IMG/VR virus record: IMGVR_UViG_3300038379_000272
Location: 1-47,621 of that record
Source of the DNA: a virus
DNA: 47,621 nt
Direction: 5' to 3' (one strand)
The first letter of the stretch is position 1. Each line of letters begins with the position of its first letter. The position numbers and the translations under genes are program-made. This document shows, piece by piece, positions 1,565 through 31,850 of this stretch. A model generated the notes under the pieces. The model had not been told where the DNA came from. It saw only the letters and a program-made list of their open reading frames with translations, and did not search any database.

Positions 1565-3157
1565 ATGCTCGACGCAACTGGTAGTCACCTGACCTCCCCC
1601 GCGACGGAGCTCGGCGGCGGGGCCGCCTCCGAGCAGACTACCGTTTCCGAGCTCGTGCAGCTCTGCGCCCTGGACTCGAGGCTCTTCAACAAGACGTTCT
1701 TCCCTAAGGCGTTCCGCCAGGAACCTCCGCTCTTCGACGAGGCGCTTTCGAGGTTCCTCGAAGGTCCCGGAAGGTTGAAGATGTGCCATATCTTCCGCGG
1801 TGGGATGAAAACCACCCGGCTTCGGGCGCTAACCGCAAAGAGGATTGCCTATGGGGTCTCTCGCACTGTCCTCTATATCGGAAAATCCGAGGGACACGCC
1901 ATCCGGTCAGTTGGATGGCTTCGCTCTCAGGTGGAACATAATCGCAACTTCGCCGACACTTTCGGCCTTAGGCCGGGTGTTAAGTGGCAGGACCATGAGG
2001 CTCAAATCCACCACGGCGTGGACGAGGTGCCGATTTGGGTTGTGGGAATGGGCGTTCATGGAAGCGTGCGCGGCATCAACCTCGACGATTACCGCCCCGA
2101 TCTCATTATCCTCGATGATATCATCAGCGAGGAGAACAGTGGTACGCCGGAGCAGCGAGAAAAGATTAACGATCTGGTTTACGGAGCTCTCCTTGAGTCT
2201 CTGGCCCCCGCCAGCGAGGCTCCCGACGCAATGATCGCCGGCCTTCAGACGCCTATCGCGAACGACGACTACTCGATGAAGGCGAAGAGTGATCCGAGCT
2301 GGAAGTACTTTCGCGCGGGATGCTGGACGCCCGAGACCGAGGAGCTACCGCTCCACCAGAGGGAGTCGGTGTGGCCGGCCCGCTGGAGTAGCGAAACCCT
2401 TCGGCAAGAGAAGCTCGACGCCATCGCCCGCAACAAGCTCTCCGCCTTCGTCCGAGAGAAGGAGTGCAAGCTCATTACCCCCGAGACCTCGGCGTTCTTG
2501 CCCTCCTGGGTTCAGCGCTGGCAAGAACTCCCACAAAGCCTCTCGCACATCATGGTGATTGACCCAGTTCCGCCGCCCTCCCCTGCGGCGATCGCCAAGG
2601 GCATGGATAAGAAGGACTTCGAGGCAATCTCGGTCTTGGGCCGCGGCCCAAAGGGTCAGATTTACGTTCGGGAAATCTCCGTCAGCAAGGGCCATGAGCC
2701 CTCGTGGACGCTGATGGAGTTCTTCCGCCTTGCGCGAAAGTACCGTATTCGTAAGGTGGTCGTCGAAAGTGTAGCGTATCAGCGCACTCTCGCCTGGCTC
2801 CTGCGCCAGGCGATGATGACGGAGCGTCTCTATTTCGTCATCGAGGAGTTCGACGACCGGAGGTCGAAGCACAACCGCATACTGGACGGCATCAGCGGGC
2901 CGGCCTCGCAGCACATGCTCTTCCTTCCCCCTTTGCATCTGCCTGAGGCGAACAGCGAGGGCATCCAGATGTTTCTGCAGCAATTCGCCGAGTACCCCAA
3001 CGTCTCTCACGACGATGCTCTCGAGACGGTTGCGATCGGCTGCATGAAGCTTCAGGGCCTGCTCTTCGGCGATAGCGAGGATGACGTTCTCCCGGACGAG
3101 GATGACGAGTACGCCAAGGCGCCCAAGGGCGAAATCGGAAGGACCCTTTCGCCATGA
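1565..3157 (+). CDS. terL: Terminase large subunit
   Basis: 530 aa. P-loop-like FRGGMKTTR and Walker-B-like DLIILDDII, with a C-terminal nuclease-sized domain. ATGA overlap with the following portal-sized gene. Confidence 0.85.
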   Translation: MLDATGSHLTSPATELGGGAASEQTTVSELVQLCALDSRLFNKTFFPKAFRQEPPLFDEALSRFLEGPGRLKMCHIFRGGMKTTRLRALTAKRIAYGVSRTVLYIGKSEGHAIRSVGWLRSQVEHNRNFADTFGLRPGVKWQDHEAQIHHGVDEVPIWVVGMGVHGSVRGINLDDYRPDLIILDDIISEENSGTPEQREKINDLVYGALLESLAPASEAPDAMIAGLQTPIANDDYSMKAKSDPSWKYFRAGCWTPETEELPLHQRESVWPARWSSETLRQEKLDAIARNKLSAFVREKECKLITPETSAFLPSWVQRWQELPQSLSHIMVIDPVPPPSPAAIAKGMDKKDFEAISVLGRGPKGQIYVREISVSKGHEPSWTLMEFFRLARKYRIRKVVVESVAYQRTLAWLLRQAMMTERLYFVIEEFDDRRSKHNRILDGISGPASQHMLFLPPLHLPEANSEGIQMFLQQFAEYPNVSHDDALETVAIGCMKLQGLLFGDSEDDVLPDEDDEYAKAPKGEIGRTLSP

Positions 3158-5115
3158 GTGGGCAGAGTGTTAAACTCGACCCGAAGGGGCCTCTTCACGC
3201 CAGGGTGAAGCAGCAGCTGAACCGGCGCTATAGCCTCTCGGCCCGCCGCATGTGGCGCTTGCATGAGCAGTGGCGGAAGAACGAAGAGCAGTTCATCGCC
3301 TACATGCCGGAGCGAAACGCCGACGCTTTGCGTCGCGACGCTCGCGAGATTGATGGGAAGCCCCAGTACACCACCATCGTCCTACCGTACACTTACGCGA
3401 TGCTCATGAGCGCGCACTCCTACTGGACGACGGTGTTTCTCGGCCGCGCCCCGATCATGCAATTCAGCGGGCGGCATGGCGAGACTGAGCAGCAGATCAT
3501 GGCCGTCGAGGCCCTCATCGACTATCAGATGCAGGTCGGCGAGATGCTCGTTCCCCTTTACTTCTGGCTCCTCGACGCGGGAAAGTACGGGATTGGGGTT
3601 ATCACGAACTACTGGCTGAACGAAGTTAAGTCCATCAGCCGCGTGGTTGAGAAGCCTCAGATGCTCTACGGCATGGAAATCGGCGGGCCTCCGACGAGTG
3701 AGATCGAGACGGTCGAGGTGCCGGGGTATCAGGGCAATAAGCTCTGGAACATCCGGCCCTATGATTACTATCCTGATCCTAGGGTACCACTCCACAGCCC
3801 TCAGCGCGGGGAGTTCGTGGGCTTCCACTCCGAGGTAGGGCTGACGGAAATCCTCAAGCGTACACGCGCGGGAGGCTATATCAACACGCGGGCCGAGCTG
3901 TTAGCTCAGTTCGGCGGCCGCGGCGCAACGGGGCGCGAGCAGGGCTCGGCGCAGGTGCCCTTGCCGAACGACGAAAGCTTCAACGTCAGCTCGGACGAGC
4001 TGGCCGACACCGGGCCTTACGGCCTCATCACCATGTTCGTTGACCTCGTGCCGGCGGAGTGGGGGCTGAGCAAGATCGAGCATCGCGAAAAGTGGGCCTT
4101 CACCGCCGTGGTTCGGGGCAGAGGTGTGACGGAAGGCCAGCTCGGCAACCTCGAGCTGATCATCGAAGCCCGCCCTTTGGGCTGCCTCGTCGATAAGTTC
4201 CCCATCAATGTGCTCGAAATGGAGCCAGAGGGCTATGGTATCACCGCTCGCGGTATGCCGGAGATCCTCCGCCCCCTCCAGAACACGATGGACTGGCTGA
4301 TCAACAGCCATATGTACAACGTCCGCAAGACGATGAACAACCAGTGGCTGGTGGACCCCAGTCGCATCGTCATGAACGACTTCAATGAGCCGATGGCGGG
4401 CGGTGCCATTCGCGCTCGCGCGGCCGCCTACGGGAGTGACCTTCGCACGGCGATCGCACAGCTACCTGTGGTGGACGTAACGAGGGGGCATCTGAGCGAC
4501 ATTATGTTCGTGCATGACTTCGCTCAGCGAGCGGTGGGCGTGAATGATCAGATCATGGGGCTGATCAATCAAGGTGGGCGGAAAACCGCCCAGGAGGTGC
4601 GGAGTTCCTCGACCTTCGGCGTGAACCGCCAGAAAACGATCAGCGAGTTCTATTCCGCAATGGGCTTCGGCCCCCTCGCTTCCCAGCTTGTCGGCTATTC
4701 GCAGCAGTATTACGACGGCCAGATGAAGATGCGGATCGTCGGCGATCTTATGCTCGAGGCCGGGCCGCAGTTCCTTCAGGTCGATCCGCAAAGTATTGCG
4801 GGTAGCTACGACTTCGTGCCAGTGGATGGTACGATGCCGGCCGATCGCTTCGCGCAAGCGAATATGTGGAAAGAGCTTTTGATGGGCATGTCGAAGGTCC
4901 CACAGGTCATGATGCAATATGACCTCGGAAGGATTTTCGGTTGGGTCGCTCAGCTCGGCGGGCTGAAGAACATCTACAAGTTCAGGGTTCAAGTCATGCC
5001 GGACCAGGCGGCCGCGATGGCGGCTCAGGCCGGCAACGTCGTGCCGATGCGCTCGCGCGATCCGAGCGTGGTGGCGGGGCCGAAACAGATACCTCAGATG
5101 GGAACGCCGGGATGA
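3154..5115 (+). CDS. Portal protein
   Basis: 653 aa, translationally coupled (ATGA) to terL. Size and position are canonical for a portal. Confidence 0.75.
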   Translation: MSGQSVKLDPKGPLHARVKQQLNRRYSLSARRMWRLHEQWRKNEEQFIAYMPERNADALRRDAREIDGKPQYTTIVLPYTYAMLMSAHSYWTTVFLGRAPIMQFSGRHGETEQQIMAVEALIDYQMQVGEMLVPLYFWLLDAGKYGIGVITNYWLNEVKSISRVVEKPQMLYGMEIGGPPTSEIETVEVPGYQGNKLWNIRPYDYYPDPRVPLHSPQRGEFVGFHSEVGLTEILKRTRAGGYINTRAELLAQFGGRGATGREQGSAQVPLPNDESFNVSSDELADTGPYGLITMFVDLVPAEWGLSKIEHREKWAFTAVVRGRGVTEGQLGNLELIIEARPLGCLVDKFPINVLEMEPEGYGITARGMPEILRPLQNTMDWLINSHMYNVRKTMNNQWLVDPSRIVMNDFNEPMAGGAIRARAAAYGSDLRTAIAQLPVVDVTRGHLSDIMFVHDFAQRAVGVNDQIMGLINQGGRKTAQEVRSSSTFGVNRQKTISEFYSAMGFGPLASQLVGYSQQYYDGQMKMRIVGDLMLEAGPQFLQVDPQSIAGSYDFVPVDGTMPADRFAQANMWKELLMGMSKVPQVMMQYDLGRIFGWVAQLGGLKNIYKFRVQVMPDQAAAMAAQAGNVVPMRSRDPSVVAGPKQIPQMGTPG

Positions 5116-6396: not shown

Positions 6397-7647
6397 ATGG
6401 CTGCAGTAGCTGGTGTTCGCGGAACAGGTGATTGGGGCACCGACGAGCGCCCTAAGAACTTCCGCGAGTATATCCTCTGGAGGAACCCGAACGGTGGCTT
6501 GCCCATCCTCGGCCTCATGGGGAAAACGGGAAAAGAGACTACGGATGACCCGGAGTTCTCTTGGTGGGATGAGCCGGTGGATTTGATCCGGCTTCAGGCC
6601 AACGGCGCCCATGCCTCGGGCGACACGCTGATCAATGTCGATTCAGCCGACCCGAGCATCAGCGCTCCTGGTAATCTGTGGGGAGTGGCGACACACCTCA
6701 CGCCGGGTGATGTTCTGATGGTGGAGCCAGCGGCCGACGCCGCGAGCTTCACGCCGGAATACATCGAAGTGACGCAGGTGCTCTCTGAGACTCAGTTCAC
6801 CGCACGGCGCGGTGTGGCCGGCTCGACAGCGGGCTCGATCTCGGACAATGCTTTTCTGCTGAAGATCGGTACGACCTTCTCAGAAGGCACGTCAGAGCCG
6901 AAGGCGACTTCGCGCAACCCGATCAAGTACAGCAACTTCACGCAGATCTTCAAAACGACCTATGACGTGACGGGCACGGCGAGCGAGACGAAGGCCCGCA
7001 CAGGGGACATTCTGAAGAACGAGCGGAAGCGGCGAGCGCTCGATCACGGCAAGGACCAGGAACTCGCGTTCCTGTTCGGGCGGAAGAGCGAGGTCACCGG
7101 CGAGAACGGTAAGCCGAAACGGACGTTCGACGGTATCCGTCGCTTCATCCCAACGGTCAATACGACGGTCTTTACGGCTGCCGTTACCTTCACCGGCGCC
7201 ACCAACAACTTCCTCGACTCCGTCTACAAGGTCTTCGACTACGAGACCGAGGCCGGCGACGAGCGTATGGCGATCTGCGGAAACGCAGCGCTGAACGAAC
7301 TGAACAAGATCGTGGCGAAAGACACGAACAGCGAAATTCAGTTCGGCGAGGTGATCAAGATGTACGGGATGAACCTTCGGGAGCTGATCCTCCCGCAGGG
7401 GCGCCTGTACCTCCGCACGCATCCGCTTCTCAACCGCCATCCGACGCTGTATGGCAAGTCGATGTGGTTGCTCGACTTCACGGCCCTCAAACTTCGGCCG
7501 ATGAAGGGCAGAGACACGAAGTTCCAGGACAACATCCAGCAGAAGGGCGAGGATAGTGTTCGGGGCCAGTGGATCGGCGAGCTTGGGCTGGAAGTCCGCT
7601 ACGGCGGGCTGACCTGCGGCTATCTCGGCAACATCAGCGCGACGTAA
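6397..7647 (+). CDS. Major capsid protein
   Basis: 416 aa with a GAGGA RBS. Follows the scaffold gene directly. Size fits HK97-fold capsid proteins. Confidence 0.8.
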   Translation: MAAVAGVRGTGDWGTDERPKNFREYILWRNPNGGLPILGLMGKTGKETTDDPEFSWWDEPVDLIRLQANGAHASGDTLINVDSADPSISAPGNLWGVATHLTPGDVLMVEPAADAASFTPEYIEVTQVLSETQFTARRGVAGSTAGSISDNAFLLKIGTTFSEGTSEPKATSRNPIKYSNFTQIFKTTYDVTGTASETKARTGDILKNERKRRALDHGKDQELAFLFGRKSEVTGENGKPKRTFDGIRRFIPTVNTTVFTAAVTFTGATNNFLDSVYKVFDYETEAGDERMAICGNAALNELNKIVAKDTNSEIQFGEVIKMYGMNLRELILPQGRLYLRTHPLLNRHPTLYGKSMWLLDFTALKLRPMKGRDTKFQDNIQQKGEDSVRGQWIGELGLEVRYGGLTCGYLGNISAT

Positions 7648-7657
7648 GGAGGCGAAA

Positions 7658-8020
7658 ATGTCGAGTGATCGCAGAGACTTTGGAGACTTTGAGCGGCTGA
7701 AGAGCCGGCAGACTGTCAACGACTACTTCCGTCAGGCGACGGGGATCGTGGACAACTTTCCGGTGCCTTCGGCTGGGCCGTCTACCCTCTTTCTGAGGGC
7801 GACGACAGCCCGTGACGTTCTACTGCCTTTCGTCAATTCTGACATGGACGGCAGGGTGCTCACCATCTACAACGAGGGAACCGGCGTGATTACGCTGAAA
7901 ACCTCGAGCGATGCGGCTCTTTCGCCGGCGCGGACCATCAGCGGCAATGCCTCGATGGTCGTACAGGCGGTGAACGGCCTCGCGCAGACAGCGGCCTGGA
8001 AGGCCCTGTCGGTGACGTAA
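7658..8020 (+). CDS. Hypothetical virion protein (possible head decoration)
   Basis: 120 aa. GGAGG RBS directly after the capsid stop. Beta-rich sequence, followed by the stem-loop at 8028..8054. Confidence 0.5.
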   Translation: MSSDRRDFGDFERLKSRQTVNDYFRQATGIVDNFPVPSAGPSTLFLRATTARDVLLPFVNSDMDGRVLTIYNEGTGVITLKTSSDAALSPARTISGNASMVVQAVNGLAQTAAWKALSVT

Positions 8021-8027
8021 GCGAAGT

Positions 8028-8054
8028 GAGGGTGGGAGGGCAACCTCCCCCCTC
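8028..8054 (+). other. Stem-loop with GCAA tetraloop after the capsid genes (no U-tract)
   Basis: GAGGG-t-GGGAGG gcaa CCTCCC-CCCTC gives 11 bp with one bulge. It could attenuate transcription or stabilise the mRNA. Confidence 0.35.
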
Positions 8055-8072
8055 TACTCCAGGGAGACTCAT

Positions 8073-8786
8073 ATGAAGATCCTTATAGTGGGTTCGGGGC
8101 CGGAGTGGGACAAGGCTCCCTTTTCGGATGAGAGCTATCACATCTGGACTTACGGCCTGATCGCCCACCTTTTGCCTCGGGTTAACGTAGTGTTCGAGAT
8201 GCACCGCAGGGACCTCTGGCGGAACTTTCAGTGGGAGACCACTGAGGCGGAGTATGTGGCGAGGCTAAACGGCTTCAACGTGCCCGTTATGATGTGCGAA
8301 GAGCAGTCGGACATTCCGAAGTCGCAGAAGTACCCCTTGAAGGAGATCAGCGAGCTCGTTGGGCCGTACTTTGCCTCGACGATTTCGTATCAGCTCGCCC
8401 TCGCGTGCCTTATTCAGCAGAAGCACGGCGGCGTGAACGAGATTTCGCTCTATGGGTTCGACCTGAAGCATTGGGAGGAGTGGGCGTATCAGCGCCCAAA
8501 TGTAAACCGTCTTATCGGCTTCGCCCAGGGGCTCGGAATTCCCGTGAAGGTGGCGTCGCAGAGTCTGATTGGCATCCCCTGGCTGTACGGCTATGAGGTT
8601 GATCGGGAGCAGGTAAGGGTCAGTACGGCCCTTCTCGAAGAGGATTACGCCCAGCTCGCTGCCCTGATGAACCGGATTGGGGAACATCAGCTCGCGATGG
8701 CGTATGCGAAGGATAAGGCGAAAGAGGAAAAGCGGGGAACTCTTCCCCCGGATCACGTCCCCGATTTACGGAGTGCAGCAGAATGA
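8073..8786 (+). CDS. Hypothetical Rossmann-like protein (DUF115 / sialyltransferase-like pattern)
   Basis: 237 aa, AGGGAG RBS. N-terminal MKILIVGSGPEW, and later ASTISYQLALACL...VNEISLYGFDL. This resembles the xxGNGPS ... G-x-D layout of DUF115/Cst-II-like enzymes. The function call is weak. Confidence 0.3.
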   Translation: MKILIVGSGPEWDKAPFSDESYHIWTYGLIAHLLPRVNVVFEMHRRDLWRNFQWETTEAEYVARLNGFNVPVMMCEEQSDIPKSQKYPLKEISELVGPYFASTISYQLALACLIQQKHGGVNEISLYGFDLKHWEEWAYQRPNVNRLIGFAQGLGIPVKVASQSLIGIPWLYGYEVDREQVRVSTALLEEDYAQLAALMNRIGEHQLAMAYAKDKAKEEKRGTLPPDHVPDLRSAAE

Positions 8787-9046
8787 AAGAGCGGATGCAC
8801 ATTGACTGCGATCCAAAGAAGCTGAGGGAGTACGCCCTTGGGGATGAGGTGACGATCCTCGTCAAGGGTAAGATCGTCGAGCTTCGTGATGGGAAGGACC
8901 CTGAGGTGCCGGAAAAGAAAACGAAAGCCGGCACTATCGGAGAGTATCAGCCTAACGCCTCGATTTCGCTCGAAGTCGAGGAAAAGTCCATTCAGCCCGG
9001 CGGCGCGTTCGCAAAGCTCGTGAGTGACGAGGACGAGGACGACTGA
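8783..9046 (+). CDS. Hypothetical protein with acidic C-terminus
   Basis: 87 aa. ATGA overlap with the upstream gene. Ends SDEDEDD. Confidence 0.55.
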   Translation: MKERMHIDCDPKKLREYALGDEVTILVKGKIVELRDGKDPEVPEKKTKAGTIGEYQPNASISLEVEEKSIQPGGAFAKLVSDEDEDD

Positions 9047-9047
9047 G

Positions 9048-10355
9048 ATGCCTCTTTCGAGAATGGAGAGCCTTCGACAGCAGCGACGGAAGCGACGGCG
9101 CTATGGGGGTAGCGGCTCGGGAAGTCTTAGTCCGACGTTATTGCTCGACCTCACCGGCGGCCCCCTCGATCCGAGGATTACATTTACGAGAGGGTCCACT
9201 GCCTATCGAGTGAACTCCTCTGGACTCCTGGAGAGCGTGGCGAACGACGTGCCACGCTTCGACTATAACCCGACGACGCTCGCGCCGCGTGGGTTGCTGA
9301 TTGAAGAGAGTCGGACGAACTTCGCGCTGCGGAGCGAGGAATTCGATAACGGCTCATGGGCGCAGAATGGCCTCAACACGATCACTCCTAATGTCGCTGT
9401 TGCACCCGATAATACTACCACAGCGGACAAGCTTGTTGAAAACACAAGCAACGTCAATCATTTCGCTATCCAGGGATACACCAAGGCTGCGTCAGCTTTA
9501 GCTTATACATTTAGTTGTTGGGTAAAAGCTGCCGAACGCAACTTCATAAGGCTTTCGATCACAGACGATGGTGGAAATTCAGGCGTTTTTGTTAATTTCA
9601 ACCTATCTACGGGGGCTATACTAACCCAGGGGACTTTTGGTAGCGGATGGTCTGCACAGTCATCTCGTATCGAGCAGTACCCTAACGGTTGGTGGCGTTG
9701 CGTCTTACGCGGGACCTCTCAGGCGCTCACAAATTTGAATACTGCCCTTCGGATTTCTAACGATGGCAGCGGAGGAGCTTATCTGGGCGATGGGGTTTCC
9801 GGGGTTTTCGTGTGGGGCGCGCAACTCGAACAGGCCGAGTTCGAGACGAGTTACATTCCGACGACGAGTGGAAGTGCGTCGAGGAGTGCTGATAATGCGT
9901 TGATTACGGGAGGGGGATTCTCGGGGTTTTTCAATGCGGCGGCGGGGACCATCCTTGTTGTTGGCACTTCGGCACCACTATTCGTAGCCAATCAAGACGC
10001 CTTGCTGGTTGACGATAACACGACAAATGAGGCGTACTTTTCTCGCCGCGTTGCCGGACCTGGACCGTTATTTCAGGTTAATGACGGCGGCGTTACTCAA
10101 GCAGCAATTGGAGCAGGCTCCTGGGGGAATTTAACAAGGGGTAGTATGGCGTCCGCCTACGCTGCCAATGATTTCGCAACCAGTTTTAATGGGGGTGCTG
10201 TGCAGACAGACGCCTCTGGCACATTACCAACAGTTACACAGATGCAAATTGGGCGCCAAGGTGTTGGAGCAAACTATTGGAACGGCTGGATCGAGCGCAT
10301 CCAGTATTGGAACACGCGGCTGACGAACGCGCAACTACAGCAGCTTACGGCGTGA
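9048..10355 (+). CDS. Fibre / spike protein with LamG(concanavalin)-like domain
   Basis: ATG 9048 follows the upstream stop; the listed ORF starts at GTG 9024 inside the upstream gene. The pattern ITFTRGSTAYRVNSSGLLESVANDVPRFDYNP...GLLIEESRTNFALRSEEF is typical of phage fibre or head-spike proteins. Confidence 0.6.
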   Translation: MPLSRMESLRQQRRKRRRYGGSGSGSLSPTLLLDLTGGPLDPRITFTRGSTAYRVNSSGLLESVANDVPRFDYNPTTLAPRGLLIEESRTNFALRSEEFDNGSWAQNGLNTITPNVAVAPDNTTTADKLVENTSNVNHFAIQGYTKAASALAYTFSCWVKAAERNFIRLSITDDGGNSGVFVNFNLSTGAILTQGTFGSGWSAQSSRIEQYPNGWWRCVLRGTSQALTNLNTALRISNDGSGGAYLGDGVSGVFVWGAQLEQAEFETSYIPTTSGSASRSADNALITGGGFSGFFNAAAGTILVVGTSAPLFVANQDALLVDDNTTNEAYFSRRVAGPGPLFQVNDGGVTQAAIGAGSWGNLTRGSMASAYAANDFATSFNGGAVQTDASGTLPTVTQMQIGRQGVGANYWNGWIERIQYWNTRLTNAQLQQLTA

Positions 10356-10362
10356 GGGCACA

Positions 10363-10872
10363 ATGGGCCTCGTAACGATTGACGTTGATCCAGGGATAGG
10401 GGCGGGGCGGAAGCCCATTGGCTTTGATGAGCTCTCAGCGGTCAATTACCAGATCGTTAAGCTTCTGATCGGCGCGGCCGGGAACTTCCAGCTTCTGGAT
10501 AAGGACGACCCCGCGACTCCGATACCTGTGAGACTTACGAATGGGGCCGCGTTTTACACCGCGAGCGGGGGTGGGGGCTCGACAGCCTCGACTGATACCG
10601 TCCAGACCACGCCGACGATGGGGACTTCGAGCGCACAAATTCTCGCTGCGAACGCAAATCGCCTGGCTGCGGTGGTGTTCAACCCACTCTCAGTGGATTT
10701 GGTTATTAACCTGAAGGACGCGGCGGCTATCGCCGAAGGCGTCATTCGGATCGGACCGCGGGCTTACTGGTGCACGCCGCGAGATACGGGAGGGGTCCTC
10801 TTTACAGGGGTTATTAACGGCATCCTCGCCAGTGGTTCGGGCGATGTGACTGCGACGGAGTTGATCGCATGA
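10363..10872 (+). CDS. Hypothetical structural protein
   Basis: 169 aa. Its C-terminal segment (SSAQILAANANRLAAVVFNP...) resembles the C-terminus of the next protein (SSTAIVAARVTRRSLMIQNH...). Confidence 0.55.
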   Translation: MGLVTIDVDPGIGAGRKPIGFDELSAVNYQIVKLLIGAAGNFQLLDKDDPATPIPVRLTNGAAFYTASGGGGSTASTDTVQTTPTMGTSSAQILAANANRLAAVVFNPLSVDLVINLKDAAAIAEGVIRIGPRAYWCTPRDTGGVLFTGVINGILASGSGDVTATELIA

Positions 10873-12443
10873 GGAAACTACTTTTCGCTCTCGGTCTGTT
10901 GCTGGCATTTCCAGCTTTTGCCGATGAGAATGTCATCATCAAGACGCCGGCCGGCGACTCGGCAATGGACGAGACGAACGATGCTGTGAGGGTAAATTGC
11001 GTCGTCGGCTGCGGAGGCTCTGGTGGAACATCCTCTACGGATGATGGCGCCTTTACGGCAGGTTCCGGGTCCGGCACGCCAGCAATGGGCTTCGTGACTA
11101 CTGACGACGTAGACTCCGGTGACGTTGGCGTTGTGGGCATGACTGATGATCGTGCCATGCATACCAACCTTCGCGACGATCAGGGCGACAGCGCGATGGA
11201 TGATGCGAACAATGCAGTTCGCGTCAATATCATCGCAGGGGCAGGTTCGGGTGGGACGGCCGCGGCGGATGATAGCGCCTTCACCATCGCCTCGACGCAA
11301 GTTACCGTTGCGGGCTGCATCGAAGCCACTGATAGTATGGACGCGGGCGATCTCGGTGGCATGAAGTGCGGGGCCGACCGTGAGCTTGATGTTGACGTAG
11401 CGTCGCTTCCAAGCGTCACCATTGGCACCTTTCCTGATAATGAGCCCTTTAATGTGGCTCAGATCAATGGCGTGACGCCTTTGATGGGGAATGGTGTAAC
11501 GGGAACTGGCAGCCTTCGAGTTACGGTAGCGAGTGATAATACGGCCTTCACAGTTAATGCAGCGCAGAGCGGAACGTGGAACATCAACAACATCAGTGGT
11601 ACGGTGTCGTTGCCGACAGGCGCTGCGACCTCTGCTAATCAGAGTACAGAGATCACCGCACTTCAACTAATTGATAATCTGCCCCTAGCAGATGATGCAG
11701 CTTTCACAGTTGCTACCACGAACGTAGTGGCAATAGGTTGTATCGAAGCGACCGACACTATGGACGCTGGTGACGTAGGGGCGGTGAAGTGCGGTAATGA
11801 TCGTGAGTTGGACGTTGATGTGGCTTCGCTTCCGTCTGTGACGATCGGAACTTTCCCCGACAACGAGCCCTTTAACGTCGCGCAGATTAACGGCGTTACG
11901 CCCCTTATGGGCAACGGCGTGACGGGAACTGGTAGCCTTCGCGTCACGGTCGCGAGCGACAACACGGCCTTTACGGTGAATGCGGCGCAAGCGACGGCCG
12001 CGAACCTGAACGCCGAGGTCCAGGGCGATGCGGCGGCGGACGCCACGGTGTCGGGAAACCCTCTCTACATGGGCGGGAGGTCGAGTGAAGCCCGTCCTAC
12101 TGAGGTTACTGCAGATGGTGAAGCGGTCGGTATCTGGTCCACTCGTAGTGGAGCGCAAGTCGTCGCTCCTTACGGAACAGAGGTTGTAGCAACAGGCCAG
12201 GTGAGCGTAGGAACCAGCTCTACCGCCATCGTAGCAGCGCGAGTGACCCGGCGTAGCCTGATGATCCAGAACCACGGCACAACGCCGGCTTTCTGTATGA
12301 CCGGCACGGCGACCACTGGTTCTGGGTTTCGCCTCCCTGGCGTCGATGGTGCGAGCATTACGTTTCCGACGGCGGACGATGTAGCTTGCATCGTGGCGTC
12401 AGGATCGCAAACCGTCTCATTTGTGGAAGTGTACGAACAATGA
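10869..12443 (+). CDS. Repeat-containing fibre-like protein with N-terminal Sec-type signal peptide
   Basis: 524 aa. N-terminus MRKLLFALGLLLAFPAFA|DE. Internal ~100-aa duplication. ATGA overlaps at both ends. Confidence 0.65.
   Translation: MRKLLFALGLLLAFPAFADENVIIKTPAGDSAMDETNDAVRVNCVVGCGGSGGTSSTDDGAFTAGSGSGTPAMGFVTTDDVDSGDVGVVGMTDDRAMHTNLRDDQGDSAMDDANNAVRVNIIAGAGSGGTAAADDSAFTIASTQVTVAGCIEATDSMDAGDLGGMKCGADRELDVDVASLPSVTIGTFPDNEPFNVAQINGVTPLMGNGVTGTGSLRVTVASDNTAFTVNAAQSGTWNINNISGTVSLPTGAATSANQSTEITALQLIDNLPLADDAAFTVATTNVVAIGCIEATDTMDAGDVGAVKCGNDRELDVDVASLPSVTIGTFPDNEPFNVAQINGVTPLMGNGVTGTGSLRVTVASDNTAFTVNAAQATAANLNAEVQGDAAADATVSGNPLYMGGRSSEARPTEVTADGEAVGIWSTRSGAQVVAPYGTEVVATGQVSVGTSSTAIVAARVTRRSLMIQNHGTTPAFCMTGTATTGSGFRLPGVDGASITFPTADDVACIVASGSQTVSFVEVYEQ
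11268..11567 (+). repeat. Coding repeat unit 1 (aa 134-233) of the 10869..12443 protein
   Basis: DDSAFTIASTQVTVAGCIEATDSMDAGD...NTAFTVNAAQ. The last 63 aa are identical to unit 2. Confidence 0.9.
11691..11990 (+). repeat. Coding repeat unit 2 (aa 275-374)
   Basis: DDAAFTVATTNVVAIGCIEATDTMDAGD...NTAFTVNAAQ. Offset from unit 1 is 423 nt. Confidence 0.9.
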
Positions 12444-14164
12444 TCCGTTGGCTTCGCAACCTTCTTCTCGCGGTCGTCCTAGCTTGCGGCCTGACACCGA
12501 GCGCGCAGGCGCAAGACCTCTGGATGAATGTCCCAGGGGGCAGCGGCGGTGCGCCGGAGTCTTTGGGAAGCTGGATCTATCTCGGGTCTCAGACCGCGAG
12601 TGCGTCAGCCACGCTCGATTTCCCCCTAACGAGCTACAGCGGCTACACGCATTTCGTCTTTGTTCTGCATCATCTTACACCAGCGACGGACGCGACCAAT
12701 CTCTGGATACGAACCTCCTCTGATGGGGGGAGTACCTACGATAGCGCCGCGAGCAATTATCGCTGGGCAACACACGCCTTTACAACATCGGCGGGCAATG
12801 CGGCACAAGGCTCAGCCGCCGCGACCGAGATCATCCTGAATGATAACGGCAACACTATCGGAAACCTTTCCGGTGAAGGGTTCACTGGCGAAGTGTGGTT
12901 GGTGCGCCCCTCGGCGGCGCTGGAAACGCGACTTGATTGGAGGGGGCAGTATCGACGTGCCTCTGATAGCCTCTACTTTGGCATCAGCGGTAGCGGGATG
13001 CGCGCGGCATCTGCCGATGTTGATGCTGTGCGCTTTTTGGCTTCGACCGGCAATCTTGGGTCTGGGACCATCGACCTCTACGGCCTTTCGCTGACCAGCA
13101 CTCCGGGCCCTAACGAGCAGATCACCAAGCTGCACGTCAATCAGATCACCGCCACGCCATCGACCGATCAGAATGATTTCAACCCGAGCGGCTGGGACGG
13201 CACCGAGCCCGACAAGGCGACTCATATCCGCATCGGCAACACGGCGAGCATCCGCATCACCGGCCTTGCTGGCGGCACCGAGGGGCGCATTGCCATCCTG
13301 ACGAACGTAACCAGCGGCACGTCCGGCGAGCTACTTATTCTTGAGGACGAGAATGCCTCTTCGACGGCCGCCAATCGCTTCGCTTTTTCCGATGGTATGG
13401 CCCGGTTCCTTATGCCGGGGGCGAGTATTCAGCTCATTTACGACAGCACATCGAGCCGCTGGCGGCAGTCGGCGGGGACGCGAGGGGAAGATCGCTTCGA
13501 CGTGTGGGAGGACCTGAATGGTACGGGCGTCGAAACGGGCACGGCCGTCAGTGGTACGGGCGCGAGCTGTCAAACCGGCACGTTCCTGGCGACCGATACG
13601 ACTGACGCGCCGTTAGGTGTGCTGCAGTGTGATAGCGGGACGACAGCAACTGGCCGCGCCCACGTCGGCAACGCCTCGACGGATAATATCCAGCCCGCTA
13701 AAGGTCCAGCGTTATTTTTAACCAGGGCTACAGTAGAAACGCTCTCCGTCAATGCCAGCGAGGAGTTTCAGGTTTGGGCCGGCTGGCATGATGCAGTGGG
13801 CAAGACTAGCCCGACCGATGGCGTCTACTGGCAGTATGATGTGGATGTTGACACCACTTGGCGCCCCTGTACCGAGGATACCTCGACGCAGGTTTGCAGC
13901 ACCACGGACGGCCCCACGGTGTCGGTGTCGGAGTATCATTGGCTCGGCATCTTCTGTCCGAGCGATTGGATCGGCTGCACGTTCTTCCATAGTACCACTG
14001 GAGCGTCATGGACCATCAGCGGTACAGTGGCCAGCGAGAACCCTCCTGAGGTAGGCGATGAGGTAGGGCTCGGTGTGACTATCAACAAGACTACTGGAAC
14101 GACGCAGCGAAACCTTTCGGTTGATCTGCTTGCTTATCGCTACGACTATGATCGGGGCAGCTAA
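12440..14164 (+). CDS. Large structural-region protein with signal peptide or lipobox-like N-terminus
   Basis: ATG 12440 forms an ATGA overlap with the upstream stop; the listed ORF starts earlier at 12386. 574 aa. N-terminus MIRWLRNLLLAVVLACGLTPSAQA|QD. Confidence 0.6.
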   Translation: MIRWLRNLLLAVVLACGLTPSAQAQDLWMNVPGGSGGAPESLGSWIYLGSQTASASATLDFPLTSYSGYTHFVFVLHHLTPATDATNLWIRTSSDGGSTYDSAASNYRWATHAFTTSAGNAAQGSAAATEIILNDNGNTIGNLSGEGFTGEVWLVRPSAALETRLDWRGQYRRASDSLYFGISGSGMRAASADVDAVRFLASTGNLGSGTIDLYGLSLTSTPGPNEQITKLHVNQITATPSTDQNDFNPSGWDGTEPDKATHIRIGNTASIRITGLAGGTEGRIAILTNVTSGTSGELLILEDENASSTAANRFAFSDGMARFLMPGASIQLIYDSTSSRWRQSAGTRGEDRFDVWEDLNGTGVETGTAVSGTGASCQTGTFLATDTTDAPLGVLQCDSGTTATGRAHVGNASTDNIQPAKGPALFLTRATVETLSVNASEEFQVWAGWHDAVGKTSPTDGVYWQYDVDVDTTWRPCTEDTSTQVCSTTDGPTVSVSEYHWLGIFCPSDWIGCTFFHSTTGASWTISGTVASENPPEVGDEVGLGVTINKTTGTTQRNLSVDLLAYRYDYDRGS

Positions 14165-14400
14165 TGGCGATGGGCGGGCTGATATTTCTATGGCAGGGAG
14201 GAGCTGTTGAACCGTGCTTCGCGCCGAGTGATACACCGCTTGTTGGGGCATGGGTGGCAGAGGCCGCAGCCAGTGGGAGTTTCGTGCCCGAAGGACCTCT
14301 CGCCCCAGGATGGGGAAAAGAGTCTGCCCTTGGTGGGGGGTGGGGTAAGCAGTCCTCACTACCTTCCGGTTGGGGAAAACAGGAGCCAAGAGAATGCTGA
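14164..14400 (+). CDS. Small ORF with three GWGK(E/Q) repeats
   Basis: 78 aa. The start overlaps the upstream stop (TAATG) and the stop overlaps the next start. Repeat PGWGKES..GGWGKQS..SGWGKQE lies at about 14305..14388. Confidence 0.35.
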   Translation: MAMGGLIFLWQGGAVEPCFAPSDTPLVGAWVAEAAASGSFVPEGPLAPGWGKESALGGGWGKQSSLPSGWGKQEPREC

Positions 14401-15059
14401 AGAGTGAAGCAATCGCTACCATCAAGAGGCGTCTCGGCTTTCGAAGCGACCAGGACTCGAACATTACGTTTGAGCTTCAGCAAGCGCAGATCAGGCTCGA
14501 AAAGGGCATACTGCTGCCGAACGGCCGCGGAACCTTCCTCCCCTGGTTCCTCGTGAGCGAGATAAGTGACGCTACGACAACGGCAGGGGAGGAGCGGGTT
14601 CCGGTGCCCTCGGACTTCTTGGCAGAGTACGAGGACAGCGCGCTCTTTTACTACGACGGAACGGCAGCGGATGGCGAACGGTGGCTCGAGCTGGCGAAAG
14701 ACGCTGAGGACTTTCTTCGAGCGCAAAAACTCCCGACAGGTGCGCCGCAGGCGTATTCGCTCAGTGGGGGGTATTTCCGCCTGGCTCCCGTACCGGACGA
14801 CGTGTACACGCTGAAAATCATCTACTACGCCAAAGGAGCGACGATCTCTTCGAGCCTCGATGAGGAGCCGATTTGGCTGCTCGAAGCTGCCGATATGCTG
14901 ATCGCTGAGGCCGGCCGGCGGATGGCAATTCCGCTGCGGGATACGATGGCGAAAGACGACTTCGAGAAGGACCTTGCGCGAGAGACAGCGCGACTGTATG
15001 CCCGCAATGAGGAGCGCATACATGACAACAGACGCTATGTAATGGGCGGAGCTGACTGA
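14394..15059 (+). CDS. Putative head-tail adaptor / virion structural protein
   Basis: AGGAG lies 8 nt upstream of ATG 14394. 221 aa. N-terminus MLKSEAIATIKRRLGFRSD... Precedes the tail fibre. Confidence 0.45.
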   Translation: MLKSEAIATIKRRLGFRSDQDSNITFELQQAQIRLEKGILLPNGRGTFLPWFLVSEISDATTTAGEERVPVPSDFLAEYEDSALFYYDGTAADGERWLELAKDAEDFLRAQKLPTGAPQAYSLSGGYFRLAPVPDDVYTLKIIYYAKGATISSSLDEEPIWLLEAADMLIAEAGRRMAIPLRDTMAKDDFEKDLARETARLYARNEERIHDNRRYVMGGAD

Positions 15060-16612
15060 TGACGATTGAAAGCGCAACATTCCTAAGCCAACTCGTCACG
15101 GCTAACCCTAGCGGCGGCGATGCGAAGGCTGAGGGTGACAACCACATTCGTCTCATCAAGACGGTGTTGCAGAATACCTTTCCGGGGCTTTCGGCGGCCG
15201 TTTCGTTTGGAGGCTGGCACGGAAAAACTGACGCCCTCGACACCAAGACGGGGAACTATACAGCAGTTGCAGGTGACGATGGCAAGGCCCTCTTCTTCAA
15301 CCTTTCGGGGGCAGCGACGCTGACGCTTTTGGCCGCGGCGACAGCCGGCAATGGCTATGCCCTCTTCATCGTTAAGGGTCCAAGTCTCGATCTGCTGACG
15401 ATCGACCCGGCAAGCTCCGAGACGGTGAACGGCCAGACAACGATCACAGTCGGGCCAAATGAGGGCGGCTTCCTGATTTGCAACGGCACCTCGTGGCAGT
15501 TCATCGGCCTCTCATCGCTCTTCACGGGAGAGCGGAGTATCAAGCGTACGGAGAACAACGCCAACGCACAGACGGGCGTGAGGCTCATCCGCGAGCGGAC
15601 GGGTTCGGCGGCGGCCAATGATCTCGGCGTGACGATCGAAGCGCAGCATAAGGATAGTGCCGGCAACCTCGATGTTGTGGGGCGCATCGGCTGGGCGATG
15701 ACCTCGATCACCAATGGGGCGGAGAGCTTAGCGTGGTACATCGAGTCGATCGTCGCCGGGGCGATTGCGACAGCAGATCGTATTTGGAAGGGGCAGGGGC
15801 TGTACGCTGATGGTTTGCTCGATCCTGGCAGGGGGAAGAGTAACTTCCTCGACGTTCAGCGCAACAATGTTTCGCTCTTTCCCGACAATCACATCTTTGG
15901 CTTTCAGTGCGCGAACAACGGCACTGATGCTGCGAACGATCTCGACATTGGTGCAGGCGTAGCGGCCGACGACACCAATGCAGTGATGATCCGCACTGCG
16001 GCTTTGACGAAGCGGCTCGATGCGAATTGGGCGGTGGGAACGAACCAGGGCGGGCTGGATACGGGGGTGGAAGCTAACTCGACGTGGTATTATGTCTGGG
16101 CGATCCGGCGGCCGGACACTGGCGTAACGGACATCCTGTTCAGTGCGAGCGCAACCTCTCCGACGATGCCAGCGAACTATACGCAGAAGCGCCTCGTCTG
16201 GGCCTTCTTCAATGACTCGGCCGGGGCTATTGAGCCTTTCGTGCAGAGGGGGGATGAGTGCATCTGGAGTGATACGCCGGCGGCAGCGAGTGGGACGGCG
16301 AACACGACGACGACGCTGGCGGCACTTGTGCCAGCGATCAATGGGGTGATCGGTCACTTCCGTGGAACGATCGACGGCGGAGGTGGTACGCGCGAGGCTG
16401 TGTGGAGCTCGCTTCACGAGGCGGACGTTGCACCCTCCACTACGGCGGCGCCGCTGGAGACGATGAGGGTGAATGTGAATATCAGTGTCATGGCAGGGGA
16501 GTTTACTCTCATGCTCAGTAATTCACAGACGGTGCGAGTGAGGGCGACAGCCTCGACGGGAGTGGCGCTCTATACCAAGGGTTGGCGCTGGCACCGGGGG
16601 CGTGAAGCCTAG
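15059..16612 (+). CDS. Tail fibre protein
   Basis: 517 aa. The N-terminal motif FLSQLVTANPSGGDAKAEGDNHIRLIKTVLQNTFPGL is typical of podovirus tail-fibre N-termini. Confidence 0.65.
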   Translation: MTIESATFLSQLVTANPSGGDAKAEGDNHIRLIKTVLQNTFPGLSAAVSFGGWHGKTDALDTKTGNYTAVAGDDGKALFFNLSGAATLTLLAAATAGNGYALFIVKGPSLDLLTIDPASSETVNGQTTITVGPNEGGFLICNGTSWQFIGLSSLFTGERSIKRTENNANAQTGVRLIRERTGSAAANDLGVTIEAQHKDSAGNLDVVGRIGWAMTSITNGAESLAWYIESIVAGAIATADRIWKGQGLYADGLLDPGRGKSNFLDVQRNNVSLFPDNHIFGFQCANNGTDAANDLDIGAGVAADDTNAVMIRTAALTKRLDANWAVGTNQGGLDTGVEANSTWYYVWAIRRPDTGVTDILFSASATSPTMPANYTQKRLVWAFFNDSAGAIEPFVQRGDECIWSDTPAAASGTANTTTTLAALVPAINGVIGHFRGTIDGGGGTREAVWSSLHEADVAPSTTAAPLETMRVNVNISVMAGEFTLMLSNSQTVRVRATASTGVALYTKGWRWHRGREA

Positions 16613-16621
16613 AGGTGGTAC

Positions 16622-16870
16622 ATGAAGCTCGCGGCAATAGTTCTACTGGCTGGAATGGCTGGGCCTTCGATCTGCGAAGATAAGGCGATCTGGGCCTCGT
16701 GGCTTCAGCGAGAGTTTAACCAGTATTATGCATTTTCGCTCACGAGCAACAACTATCAGATCGAGGTTTGGATCGACCCAGTCGAGGGTGACTGGACCTT
16801 TCTTGGTGATACTGGCACGCAGTATTGCCTTGTAGTGGCAGGAAATGCTTGGCCAGAGGACCGGCGATGA
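16622..16870 (+). CDS. Small secreted protein (signal peptide)
   Basis: 82 aa. N-terminus MKLAAIVLLAGMAGPSICEDK, with no canonical lipobox. RBS AGAGGTGG. Confidence 0.5.
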   Translation: MKLAAIVLLAGMAGPSICEDKAIWASWLQREFNQYYAFSLTSNNYQIEVWIDPVEGDWTFLGDTGTQYCLVVAGNAWPEDRR

Positions 16871-17789: not shown

Positions 17790-18002
17790 ATGGCTTACGT
17801 CATCGGCGGCATTGTGCTTGCGCTCCTTATCGGAAGTATTGTCCTGTACTTTGCAGGGCGGCGTTCTGGTAAGGACAGCGTACTGAAGGGTGTCGCGACA
17901 GCTGAAGCGGAGAAACGTCGTGAAGATGATAAGATCGACACGCTTCCTCTCGACGCAAGCAAAGCGAGCGACATTGCTCGTAAGCTTGCTAAGCGTAAGT
18001 AG
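17790..18002 (+). CDS. i-spanin-like protein (N-terminal TM, charged periplasmic tail)
   Basis: 70 aa. N-terminus MAYVIGGIVLALLIGSIVLYFAG followed by a charged helix. Short for an i-spanin. Confidence 0.45.
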   Translation: MAYVIGGIVLALLIGSIVLYFAGRRSGKDSVLKGVATAEAEKRREDDKIDTLPLDASKASDIARKLAKRK

Positions 18003-18177
18003 CTGTGGCTACGACGTTGTTGCTGACCCTGCCTTCCCTCGGATGAACGAGGCGCAGGTGGAGGTTATGGCAACTGTCGTAACGGTACAGCCAGTCATGG
18101 CGTCTTGGTGGGTCAACTACATCAAGGCGTGGTGTAAGGCGGACGGTAAGACGGCTGAAGAGTGTGAAGCGGAGTAA
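17926..18177 (+). CDS. o-spanin-like lipoprotein overlapping the previous gene in another frame
   Basis: ATG 17926 lies within listed ORF 17890..18177. MIRSTRFLSTQAKRATLLVSLLSVSS|C has a lipobox-like VSSC. Overlapped architecture as in Rz/Rz1 systems. Confidence 0.5.
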   Translation: MIRSTRFLSTQAKRATLLVSLLSVSSCGYDVVADPAFPRMNEAQVEVMATVVTVQPVMASWWVNYIKAWCKADGKTAEECEAE

Positions 18178-30603: not shown

Positions 30604-31362
30604 TCATACGTAAAATACCTCGCGAGGGTTCTCTACGTCGAAAGGCTGAACAGCCCCCCAAGACTTGATGGAGGCCTTCACTCCCCACGGAATGTGGAGC
30701 GGGTCGGGATAGGGGACGGGGATGCGGCTTATGCGGGCCTTAAGTTCCTTCACCCTATGGAGGTCCTTGAACTGGATCTGCGGGATGATCGAGTCGTGGA
30801 CCTGGAGTAGGAGTTCCGCCCAAGGGAACTCGCGAAGTATGATGGCGCAAGCGCGTTGCGTCACAATGGCGATGGTGCTCTGCGGCTTCCAGGCGAGAGC
30901 CTCGGGGAGGAGGGCCTCGGGCCGGTCGAAGTAGTGGATGCGATAGCCGAAGGGGTTGAAGATCTCCCGTTTGGTCATGAGCTGCAAGTCGGTTTTGCGA
31001 TGATACTCTCGAATTTCGGGGTAGCGAGTGAAGAAGTATTGTTGGAACTTACTGACCAGTGCTTCGGGGATCGAGGCGGCCGCGCCGATACCTCGCGGCT
31101 TACCCCCATAGATGGTACCATAGGCGAGGTTCTTGCACTTCGTATACTCGGGTTCGTGCTTTTCGTTGATACGATACGCCGCAGGGAAAATCACCTTCAT
31201 GGTTTCGATGTGGATTTTAACTCCGGCGAGAAAGTCCCGCTTGAAGTTCCCGCCGATCTCCCAGGCGATGAGCATTGCCTCGGCTCCGACGAGGTCGAAG
31301 TCGAAAATAGCGTAGCCTCTGTCGGGGATGAAGATGTCACGAATATTAGGCATTTGAAGCAT
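30604..31362 (-). CDS. Family A DNA polymerase, C-terminal half (palm and fingers)
   Basis: 252 aa. Motif A FDFDLVGAEAMLIA, motif B KCKNLAYGTIYGG, motif C LLQVHDSII. Begins MLQMPNIRDIF. Confidence 0.8.
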   Translation of the reverse strand: MLQMPNIRDIFIPDRGYAIFDFDLVGAEAMLIAWEIGGNFKRDFLAGVKIHIETMKVIFPAAYRINEKHEPEYTKCKNLAYGTIYGGKPRGIGAAASIPEALVSKFQQYFFTRYPEIREYHRKTDLQLMTKREIFNPFGYRIHYFDRPEALLPEALAWKPQSTIAIVTQRACAIILREFPWAELLLQVHDSIIPQIQFKDLHRVKELKARISRIPVPYPDPLHIPWGVKASIKSWGAVQPFDVENPREVFYV

Positions 31363-31610: not shown

Positions 31611-31850
31611 TTTCGTCGCTCCCCGGCTCGAGTTGCGCTTCCTCTTTGAGGAACTCCTCCATATGGGGGTCGCGGTTGAGCTCTTCGGCGTAAGCCTCTC
31701 CTACCTTCGAGCCGATGGCGTAGAGTCTAGCATGGAACTCGCAGATCACTCGCTTGTCGTCGAGGATGAAAGTACCCTGGCGGTTGCACTCTCGAAGGCA
31801 ACAGCGGGCCAGAAGGCCAAAGACTCTTCTCATTCGTCCTCTCCTTTTGA
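31363..31850 (-). mobile_element. ~0.5-kb two-ORF insertion interrupting the polymerase gene (possible degenerate homing or moron cassette)
   Basis: It lies between pol residues ...NLQNI and PNIRDIF... Mobility is inferred, not shown. Confidence 0.3.
31591..31833 (-). CDS. Small Cys/His zinc-finger-like protein
   Basis: 80 aa with CCLREC...CEFH (CX3C-X14-CX2H). ATGA overlap with the stop of the pol N-half. SD AAAGGAGAGGA. Confidence 0.5.
   Translation of the reverse strand: MRRVFGLLARCCLRECNRQGTFILDDKRVICEFHARLYAIGSKVGEAYAEELNRDPHMEEFLKEEAQLEPGSDESETPRK

Follow-up and report, generated by a model that had tools for sequence, protein, structure and literature searches.

Two copies of a 63-residue block with identical protein sequence and randomised codons in a fibre-like gene of a metagenomic podovirus

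The fibre-like gene and its duplicated block

The DNA analysed here, referred to below as the window, comprises positions 1-47,621 of the IMG/VR virus record IMGVR_UViG_3300038379_000272. It is a phage genome, from a podovirus whose capsid and adaptor genes are of the SU10 type. A gene at 10869-12443 encodes a 524-residue, modular, fibre-like protein with thousands of homologues, and a block of 63 residues occurs twice in this protein with the same amino acid sequence and largely different codons. The sequence GGAG lies 8 nucleotides 5' of the ATG, and the stop codon overlaps the ATG of the next gene (ATGA). The protein is rich in Gly, Thr, Asn, Val and Ser and consists, in order, of a signal-like N-terminus, two A units, the first copy of the block (B1), a linker, half an A unit, the second copy (B2) and a C-terminal domain. 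These features are listed below, with G+C content at third codon positions given as GC3.

10869-12443, plus strand: gene for the 524-residue modular fibre-like protein
10869-10922, plus strand: Sec-type signal-peptide-like N-terminus, residues 1-18, MRKLLFALGLLLAFPAFA followed by DE, recognised by hydrophobicity and inspection
10953-11399, plus strand: two A-type repeat units, residues 29-101 and 106-177, 46.6% identical
11268-11378, plus strand: variable first part (37 residues) of duplicated unit 1, with 12 amino acid differences from 11691-11801
11379-11567, plus strand: B1, copy 1 of the invariant 63-residue block, residues 171-233; GC3 0.476, atypical for the genome
11568-11690, plus strand: linker SGTWNINNISGTVSLPTGAATSANQSTEITALQLIDNLPLA, a unique sequence that is not repeated after copy 2
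11691-11801, plus strand: variable first part (37 residues) of duplicated unit 2, half an A unit (A3)
11802-11990, plus strand: B2, copy 2 of the invariant block, residues 312-374; GC3 0.698, typical for the genome
11991-12440, plus strand: C-terminal beta-rich domain, residues 375-524, in common with the relative P0003

Both 11379-11567 and 11802-11990 translate to RELDVDVASLPSVTIGTFPDNEPFNVAQINGVTPLMGNGVTGTGSLRVTVASDNTAFTVNAAQ, with 63/63 residues identical. Of the 189 nucleotides, 44 are not the same in the two copies; they lie in 40 codons and none of them changes an amino acid, so that the first-pass annotation of this DNA, which had counted about 44 synonymous differences in about 40 codons at these coordinates, proved exact. 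Forty of the differences are at third codon positions, three at first and one at second positions; 29 are transitions and 15 transversions, T/C changes being the commonest (23/44), and the synonymous switches include one Ser AGC/TCT and two Leu CTT/TTG.

The blocks are part of larger duplicated units of about 100 residues, as had also been proposed, with 87% identity between residues 134-234 and residues 275-375 (E=6e-61). Twelve of the 13 amino acid differences between these units lie in the 37-residue A part at their start; the 63-residue B part that follows has none, and the remaining difference comes directly after it (12/37 in the A part versus 0/63 in the B part; Fisher P=1.8e-6). Over the first 37 codons the proportion of synonymous differences (pS) is 0.90 and that of non-synonymous differences (pN) 0.21. 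With 12 changes so close by in the A part, the constraint is local to the B part, and one old duplication holds two constraint regimes. At the nucleotide level the units are 75% identical over 254 nucleotides and the 63-codon blocks approximately 77%, and the longest perfect match between the units is 11 nucleotides in 300.

A weaker third unit preceding the two had been suggested in addition. Self-comparison of the protein confirmed that residues 29-101 and 106-177 are related (46.6% identity, E=6e-18) through the motif GDSAMD..N.AVRVN...G.GSGGT...DD.AFT...GD.G...DR., but this is an earlier A-type pair and not a third 63-residue block.

Synonymous saturation of the two copies

As a null model, codons for the 63 residues were drawn at random from the synonymous codon usage of the genome itself. 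Two such random back-translations are expected to differ at 44.1±4.4 nucleotides, compared with the 44 observed, and to share 23.6±3.6 identical codons, compared with 23/63 observed (z about -0.2). Since both values are those of random back-translation, the synonymous sites of B1 and B2 are saturated, with neither residual nucleotide homology nor an excess of differences that would indicate avoidance of identity. The Nei-Gojobori pS of 0.83 lies outside the range that allows a distance estimate, whilst the absence of amino acid differences over approximately 141 non-synonymous sites places the non-synonymous distance (dN) below about 0.02 (95% upper limit). The extreme purifying selection on both copies that had been read from the window is supported by these values, and the synonymous distance (dS) being saturated, their ratio (omega) is only bounded. 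Constraint from an overlapping gene in another frame was considered and is excluded by the free, saturated third positions; the antisense open reading frames (ORFs) are ordinary high-GC artefacts.

The same pattern within and between related genes

DNA of relatives was fetched and their B units were compared pairwise. The closest relative, P0002, is 66% identical overall and belongs to a phage with a capsid protein 94% identical to that of the window. The linker plus most of B1 is 100% conserved in P0002: an 82-residue stretch (FPDNEPF...LQLID; residues 188-269 in the window, 529-610 in P0002) is identical at 82/82 residues with 57/246 nucleotide differences. P0016, a protein with different N- and C-terminal domains, has an exact 48-residue peptide in common with the window protein at 31-39/144 nucleotide differences. 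Unit pairs within and between P0002, P0004 and P0007 have pS values of 0.6-1.0 with 0-6 amino acid differences per 45 residues, leaving out the divergent copy 2 of P0004.

A set of 45 genes with 78 units provided 48 old intragenic pairs, in which 461 codons at conserved residues were identical, compared with 440 expected (ratio 1.05). Mean codon identity is 0.46 within genes, a value that includes the recent, nucleotide-identical copies of P0006, and 0.37 between genes. Further intragenic pairs that are identical in protein and saturated in codons were found in L030 and in copies 3-4 of L007 (P0008). The L007 units, at residues 187 and 238, are adjacent with a period of 51 residues and identical in core protein sequence, and share 6/33 codons over the 33-residue core (6/29 over a 29-residue core, z=-2.3 versus random). 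This is the only pair hinting at codon identity below random, and it is not significant among approximately 50 tests.

Younger copies are also present. In L008 (P0006), three repeats of about 108 residues at approximately 7345-8100 (residues 449-700) show 0-2 differences in the 99-nucleotide core, and these near-identical repeats represent either recent tandem duplications or a collapsed or expanded assembly. As nucleotide-identical recent copies, they indicate that duplication is ongoing in the family. The next gene of the same locus (8229-9938) has five units, among them two near-identical pairs with no amino acid differences and 24-25/29 identical codons.

The two-unit A-B-linker-A-B layout is also found in the relative L001/L002, represented by independent assemblies from two samples. 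The B unit of L001 is 96% identical to that of the window (100% over 43 residues for copy 1), compared with 57% for the upstream partner, 75% for the downstream protein and 84% for the adaptor; in L003 the B unit is 93% identical and the neighbouring proteins 41-43%. Most other loci had no tblastn similarity (E<=1e-5) to the structural proteins of the window within the stretches fetched, and many of them still carry units at least 27/33 identical. More divergent versions of the unit exist, for example NVAQMNGVAVTMGNGASGTGVQRVTIANDSTG. In relatives, differing numbers of an inserted repeat of about 11 residues (AGTNNIGDVDV / LP...) separate the RELDVD motif from FPDNEPF, where the B unit starts, as at residues 470-530 and 640-690 of P0002 and residues 150-200 and 330-380 of P0003; the window holds only one degenerate copy (DVDVASLPSVTIGT).

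Purifying selection on an old repeat module

These data make it probable that the 63/63 protein identity with scrambled codons results from very strong, family-wide purifying selection on an ancient repeat module. Units in different genomes cannot delete each other intramolecularly and yet show the same pattern, so purifying selection is sufficient, and no mechanism beyond strong selection at the protein level is needed. The two units of about 100 residues would go back to an old duplication, or to recombination among relatives that brought them together, in either case before the split from the nearest sampled relative. Each unit comprises the moderately constrained 37-residue A part and the 63-residue B part, the latter holding a core of 33-45 residues (GTFPDNEPFNVAQINGVTPLMGNGVTGTGSxRVTxASDNTAFxVN) that is almost frozen across the family. 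Synonymous sites have been randomised completely in both parts, and selection would have removed non-synonymous changes from the B part while letting them persist in the A part, giving 63/63 identity at the nucleotide floor of approximately 77%. New copies presumably arise through unequal recombination and persist while their synonymous sites diverge; having no perfect match longer than 11 nucleotides, the present B1 and B2 would no longer be a substrate for homologous deletion.

Several points weigh against this interpretation. The saturation of dS that leaves omega only bounded also means that the duplication is not datable, and simple divergence in place does not explain the difference in GC3 between the copies (P=0.018). 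The homologues were retrieved by similarity to the 524-residue protein, so the most conserved units are over-represented among them. The function and oligomeric state proposed for the protein are inferences, and virion fibres do not usually carry a Sec-type signal peptide, so that the protein may not belong to the virion at all.

Other explanations of the identity

The GC3 difference bears most directly on a mosaic origin, in which B1, the linker and A3 (approximately 11379-11801, one 423-nucleotide period) were imported by recombination from a relative of lower GC3. The duplication would then be partly a graft of a foreign unit, an account compatible with purifying selection as the cause of the protein identity. 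GC3 rises from 0.476 in copy 1 to 0.698 in copy 2, and third-position differences from copy 1 to copy 2 comprise 25 changes from A/T to G/C versus 11 in the opposite direction (P=0.029). Compared with genome codon usage copy 1 is atypical (30/63 codons ending in G or C, expected 43.6±3.7, P=0.0004) and copy 2 typical (44/63), and all six Asn codons of copy 1 are AAT, against 30% AAT genome-wide. The z scores for GC3 are -3.9 for B1, -2.4 for the linker and -3.1 for A3, with 0 for both the flanking segment A2b and B2, such that the low-GC3 tract spans one repeat period as a graft would, and the lowest-GC3 segment in a scan begins exactly at 11379. Furthermore, pS versus the related phage L001 climbs from 0.40 in the capsid gene to 0.75 in the fibre gene, as expected of a mosaic fibre module.

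Against this, the whole 524-residue gene is poor in GC3 (z=-5.5), the tract is not significant as a scan statistic when the gene's own usage is the reference (P=0.21), and units in other genes vary in GC3 from 0.36 to 0.91. The change-point in GC3 was accordingly rejected as a significant boundary, although it is suggestive. No sampled sequence exceeded about 81% nucleotide identity to either copy; the best values, 79-81% for both B1 and B2, are the floor for near-identical proteins, and no donor could be assigned to either. The earlier proposal of import from a lower-GC relative is thus weakly supported: the low GC3 of copy 1 weakly suggests a mosaic origin, a scenario that is rather unlikely and that would leave the explanation of the protein identity unchanged.

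Selection for synonymous divergence, by which a direct repeat would escape homologous deletion while its protein sequence stayed identical, was the other proposal of the first-pass annotation and is not borne out. Perfect identity between B1 and B2 extends over at most 11 nucleotides, which is less than the length needed for efficient RecA-type recombination; intragenic copies in the family are mostly either nucleotide-identical, as in L008, or saturated, with only a few intermediate L008 pairs; and the L007 pair has fewer identical codons than random. However, codon identity equals the random expectation both in the window (23 versus 23.6) and family-wide (ratio 1.05), units of different genomes are equally scrambled, for which time and purifying selection suffice, and a single low pair carries no significance among so many tests. 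Avoidance of recombination is consequently improbable, and the expected stability of B1 and B2 against homologous deletion should be regarded as a consequence of saturation, possibly of survivorship, and not as evidence of directed recoding.

It is very improbable that the tandem is an assembly artefact in which variants from two strains present together were joined. Although the window consists of one metagenomic contig, the A-B-linker-A-B layout recurs in P0002, at 66% identity, in two independently assembled samples 1 nucleotide apart; copies only 77% identical would not be confused or collapsed by an assembler, and the linker and flanks are unique.

Programmed diversification or copy correction, whether by the template/variable pair of a diversity-generating retroelement or by gene conversion, can practically be disregarded: Asn AAY codons do differ between the copies and the nearby tail protein at 15059-16612 has a weak, sub-threshold match to the Pfam domain Mtd_2nd (E=0.0078, 16.9 bits, cut-off 24.6), the second domain of the Bordetella phage tropism determinant Mtd, but the differences are all synonymous and mostly third-position T/C rather than adenine-specific, a substitution pattern that rules out a retroelement, no reverse transcriptase domain was detected among the large ORFs scanned, and the lack of any nucleotide-identity tract longer than 11 nucleotides indicates that there has been no recent gene conversion.

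Size and distribution of the family

A word-indexed search identified at least 2,687 homologues of the 524-residue protein, and an exhaustive search of 1.84 billion cluster representatives gave 4,957 matches at E<=1e-3, of which 1,662 were at E<=1e-10. The family thus comprises at least 4,957 clusters at 50% identity, a figure counted for the whole protein and not for the B unit alone. The core NVAQINGVTPLMGNGVTGTGSxRVTxASDNTAF is present in 86 of the 120 top relatives, from one to nine times per protein, confirming that repeat number varies among homologues, and 44 of 191 retrieved relatives hold a unit at least 30/33 identical to that of the window.

Members were found in uncultured phages and in genome bins, on contigs binned to very different phyla. 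Single-unit members are encoded on a chromosome-size Saccharibacteria contig (L016, OZ246413.1, 5569-6708), with a core 29/33 identical, and on a 1.37-Mb Acidiferrales contig (L015, 5440-6582). The Saccharibacteria gene has no signal peptide and lies near tatC and a polysaccharide deacetylase gene.

Representation in reference collections is sparse. When an 84-residue query of B unit plus linker was used, the unit was detected in 1 of 50,697 GenBank phage records, that of the uncultured spring-water podovirus MW202554; the whole protein matched three GenBank phage records, with MW202554 the best at 67% identity. Neither the 524-residue protein nor several relatives scanned had a match above threshold in Pfam, PHROGs or NCBIfam, and the Protein Data Bank (PDB) gave no match by protein sequence or by unit profile. 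A literature search found nothing specific on signal peptides of phage fibres, on the structure of SU10 (the phage after which the capsid and adaptor families of the window are named) or on identical repeats with synonymous divergence. The module is therefore essentially absent from cultured phages and from curated family and structure libraries despite the size of the whole-protein family.

Genomic setting and signal-like N-termini

The fibre-like gene sits between the capsid and adaptor genes, within a block of structural and tail genes, and the replication genes of the window are on the minus strand. The genes of the block are listed below, those with family names being assigned by Pfam/PHROGs-type profile scans.

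1565-3157: terminase
3154-5115: portal
6397-7647: SU10-type capsid protein
9024-10355: tail protein, phrog_5939
10363-10872, plus strand: upstream partner gene, 169 residues, directly 5' of the fibre gene in the nearest relatives too
12440-14164, plus strand: downstream gene, 574 residues, with the signal-peptide-like N-terminus MIRWLRNLLLAVVLACGLTPSAQA followed by QD
14370-15059: SU10-type adaptor
15059-16612: tail protein, phrog_6465

The nearest cultured relatives of the capsid protein are at most 45% identical. The 169-residue upstream partner is 57% identical in L001 and 41% in L003, and the downstream gene has a GC3 of 0.68. The tail-protein gene at 9024-10355 has a GC3 of 0.56 and no counterpart in L001, where the homologues of 8783-9046 and 10363-10872 are nearly adjacent; about 1.3 kb has thus been inserted or deleted within the fibre module.

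The N-terminus of the 524-residue protein has a basic n-region, a hydrophobic core of 13 residues and A-F-A before a putative cleavage site, with a Kyte-Doolittle value of 2.50 over residues 4-15 (a hydrophobicity heuristic combined with inspection). Only three proteins of the window have such N-termini, namely this protein, the adjacent 574-residue protein and an 82-residue protein at 16622-16870, the signal-like segments being at 10869-10922, 12440-12520 and 16622-16700. Approximately 40% of the top 120 homologues carry a signal-like N-terminus, and genes beside homologous fibre genes are often signal-like too (starting at 5506 in L001, 7187 in L003, 7571, 9773 and 10016 in L074 and 5396 in L009). 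Conserved Cys pairs in the A units (GC...KC) are compatible with an exported protein. These features point to a cluster of apparently exported proteins within a phage structural module. It is difficult to see how an exported protein could be assembled into a virion fibre in the cytoplasm, and the linked signal peptides raise the question of whether the proteins of this family are parts of the virion.

The small ORFs at 16622-16870 and 17890-18177 have signal-peptide-like or lipobox-like N-termini (MKLAAIVLLAGMAGPSIC... and ...LLVSLLSVSSCGYD) and are possible lysis or spanin-type genes within the tail block. Elsewhere in the window, the ORF at 23254-29052 (1,932 residues) has no Pfam match at E<=0.001 and may encode an internal virion or ejection protein. 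On the minus strand, the ORF at 31830-33566 has a domain of the uracil-DNA-glycosylase superfamily and a 3'-5' exonuclease together with no more than the beginning of a family A DNA polymerase domain; the rest of the polymerase may be in the neighbouring ORF at 30604-31362 (minus strand), a possible split polymerase.

Structure and possible role of the B unit

AlphaFold2 monomer predictions gave a mean per-residue confidence (pLDDT) of 50.6 for the full-length protein with a 30-row alignment and 58.6 for one unit with a 52-row unit alignment. The repeats were modelled as extended, low-confidence chains with almost no secondary structure; both models are unusable for the repeats. Such models are compatible with an obligate oligomer. 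A Foldseek search with the full model returned weak jelly-roll/cupin-type matches, to the C-terminal domain only (best E=1e-3), and this domain is possibly, with low confidence, a jelly-roll knob. No similarity was found between the upstream 169-residue protein and the C-terminus of the fibre.

One possibility is that the B unit serves as a shaft or folding module whose fold forms only on oligomerisation, probably as a trimer. Close packing between the chains or an invariant partner, rather than a host-specific receptor, may hold its sequence constant. The presence of the unit on contigs of very different phyla makes a host-specific receptor site an unlikely cause of the constraint and favours a nucleus for folding or oligomerisation, or an invariant partner. 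A more far-reaching and unlikely interpretation is that the B unit, which occurs in many uncultured phages and on chromosome-size contigs of Saccharibacteria and Acidobacteriota, is a near-invariant module across host phyla, frozen like the most conserved cellular proteins, acting as an obligatory folding/oligomerisation nucleus or as a binder of something universal, with the proteins that carry it perhaps being exported fibre-like proteins and not cytoplasmically assembled virion fibres. If true, this would imply a non-canonical route or role for a gene of the phage structural module.

Significance and comparison with known systems

The identity of 63 residues in the presence of 44 silent differences is what saturation and purifying selection are expected to produce, and this case can serve as a calibration for similar patterns elsewhere. 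The phenomenon itself is of a known kind, whilst the B repeat module is widespread and still unnamed. A module of 33-45 residues is conserved at 90-100% in proteins and genomes that are otherwise unrecognisably diverged. Treating it as a domain family in its own right would make the fibre-like genes of uncultured phages easier to annotate, and its structure would account for an unusual degree of constraint among proteins that, as a class, are noted more for changing fast.

The closest parallel is with polyubiquitin-type repeats, in which identical protein units with many synonymous differences have reportedly been ascribed to strong purifying selection (by Nei and co-workers in 2000). In both cases the units are identical or nearly so in protein sequence, synonymous sites are near saturation, and copy number changes by birth and death with no homogenisation of the nucleotide sequence. 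Unlike polyubiquitin, the fibre units lie within one mature modular protein that is not cleaved to monomers, a unique linker stands between them and the frozen sequence covers only part of each; the family, moreover, is viral with no function assigned.

Repeat-built shafts are known in the long and short tail fibres of T4 and in podovirus fibres. The 524-residue protein resembles phage fibre shafts and receptor-binding proteins in its position in a structural/tail block, its Gly/Thr/Asn/Val/Ser-rich composition, its shuffled repeats of variable copy number and its beta-rich C-terminus, and, like intertwined-trimer fibres, it defeats monomer structure prediction. It differs from them in having a Sec-like N-terminus and no match to a curated fibre family or solved structure, and its core module is far more conserved than is usual for fibre shafts. 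The protein of the Manatee Spring podovirus MW202554, automatically annotated as a 'glycoprotein repeat domain-containing protein', has a B unit 64% identical over 55 residues; like the protein of the window it is encoded in a structural block, where it adjoins the portal gene, but it is 846 residues long and of a different architecture.

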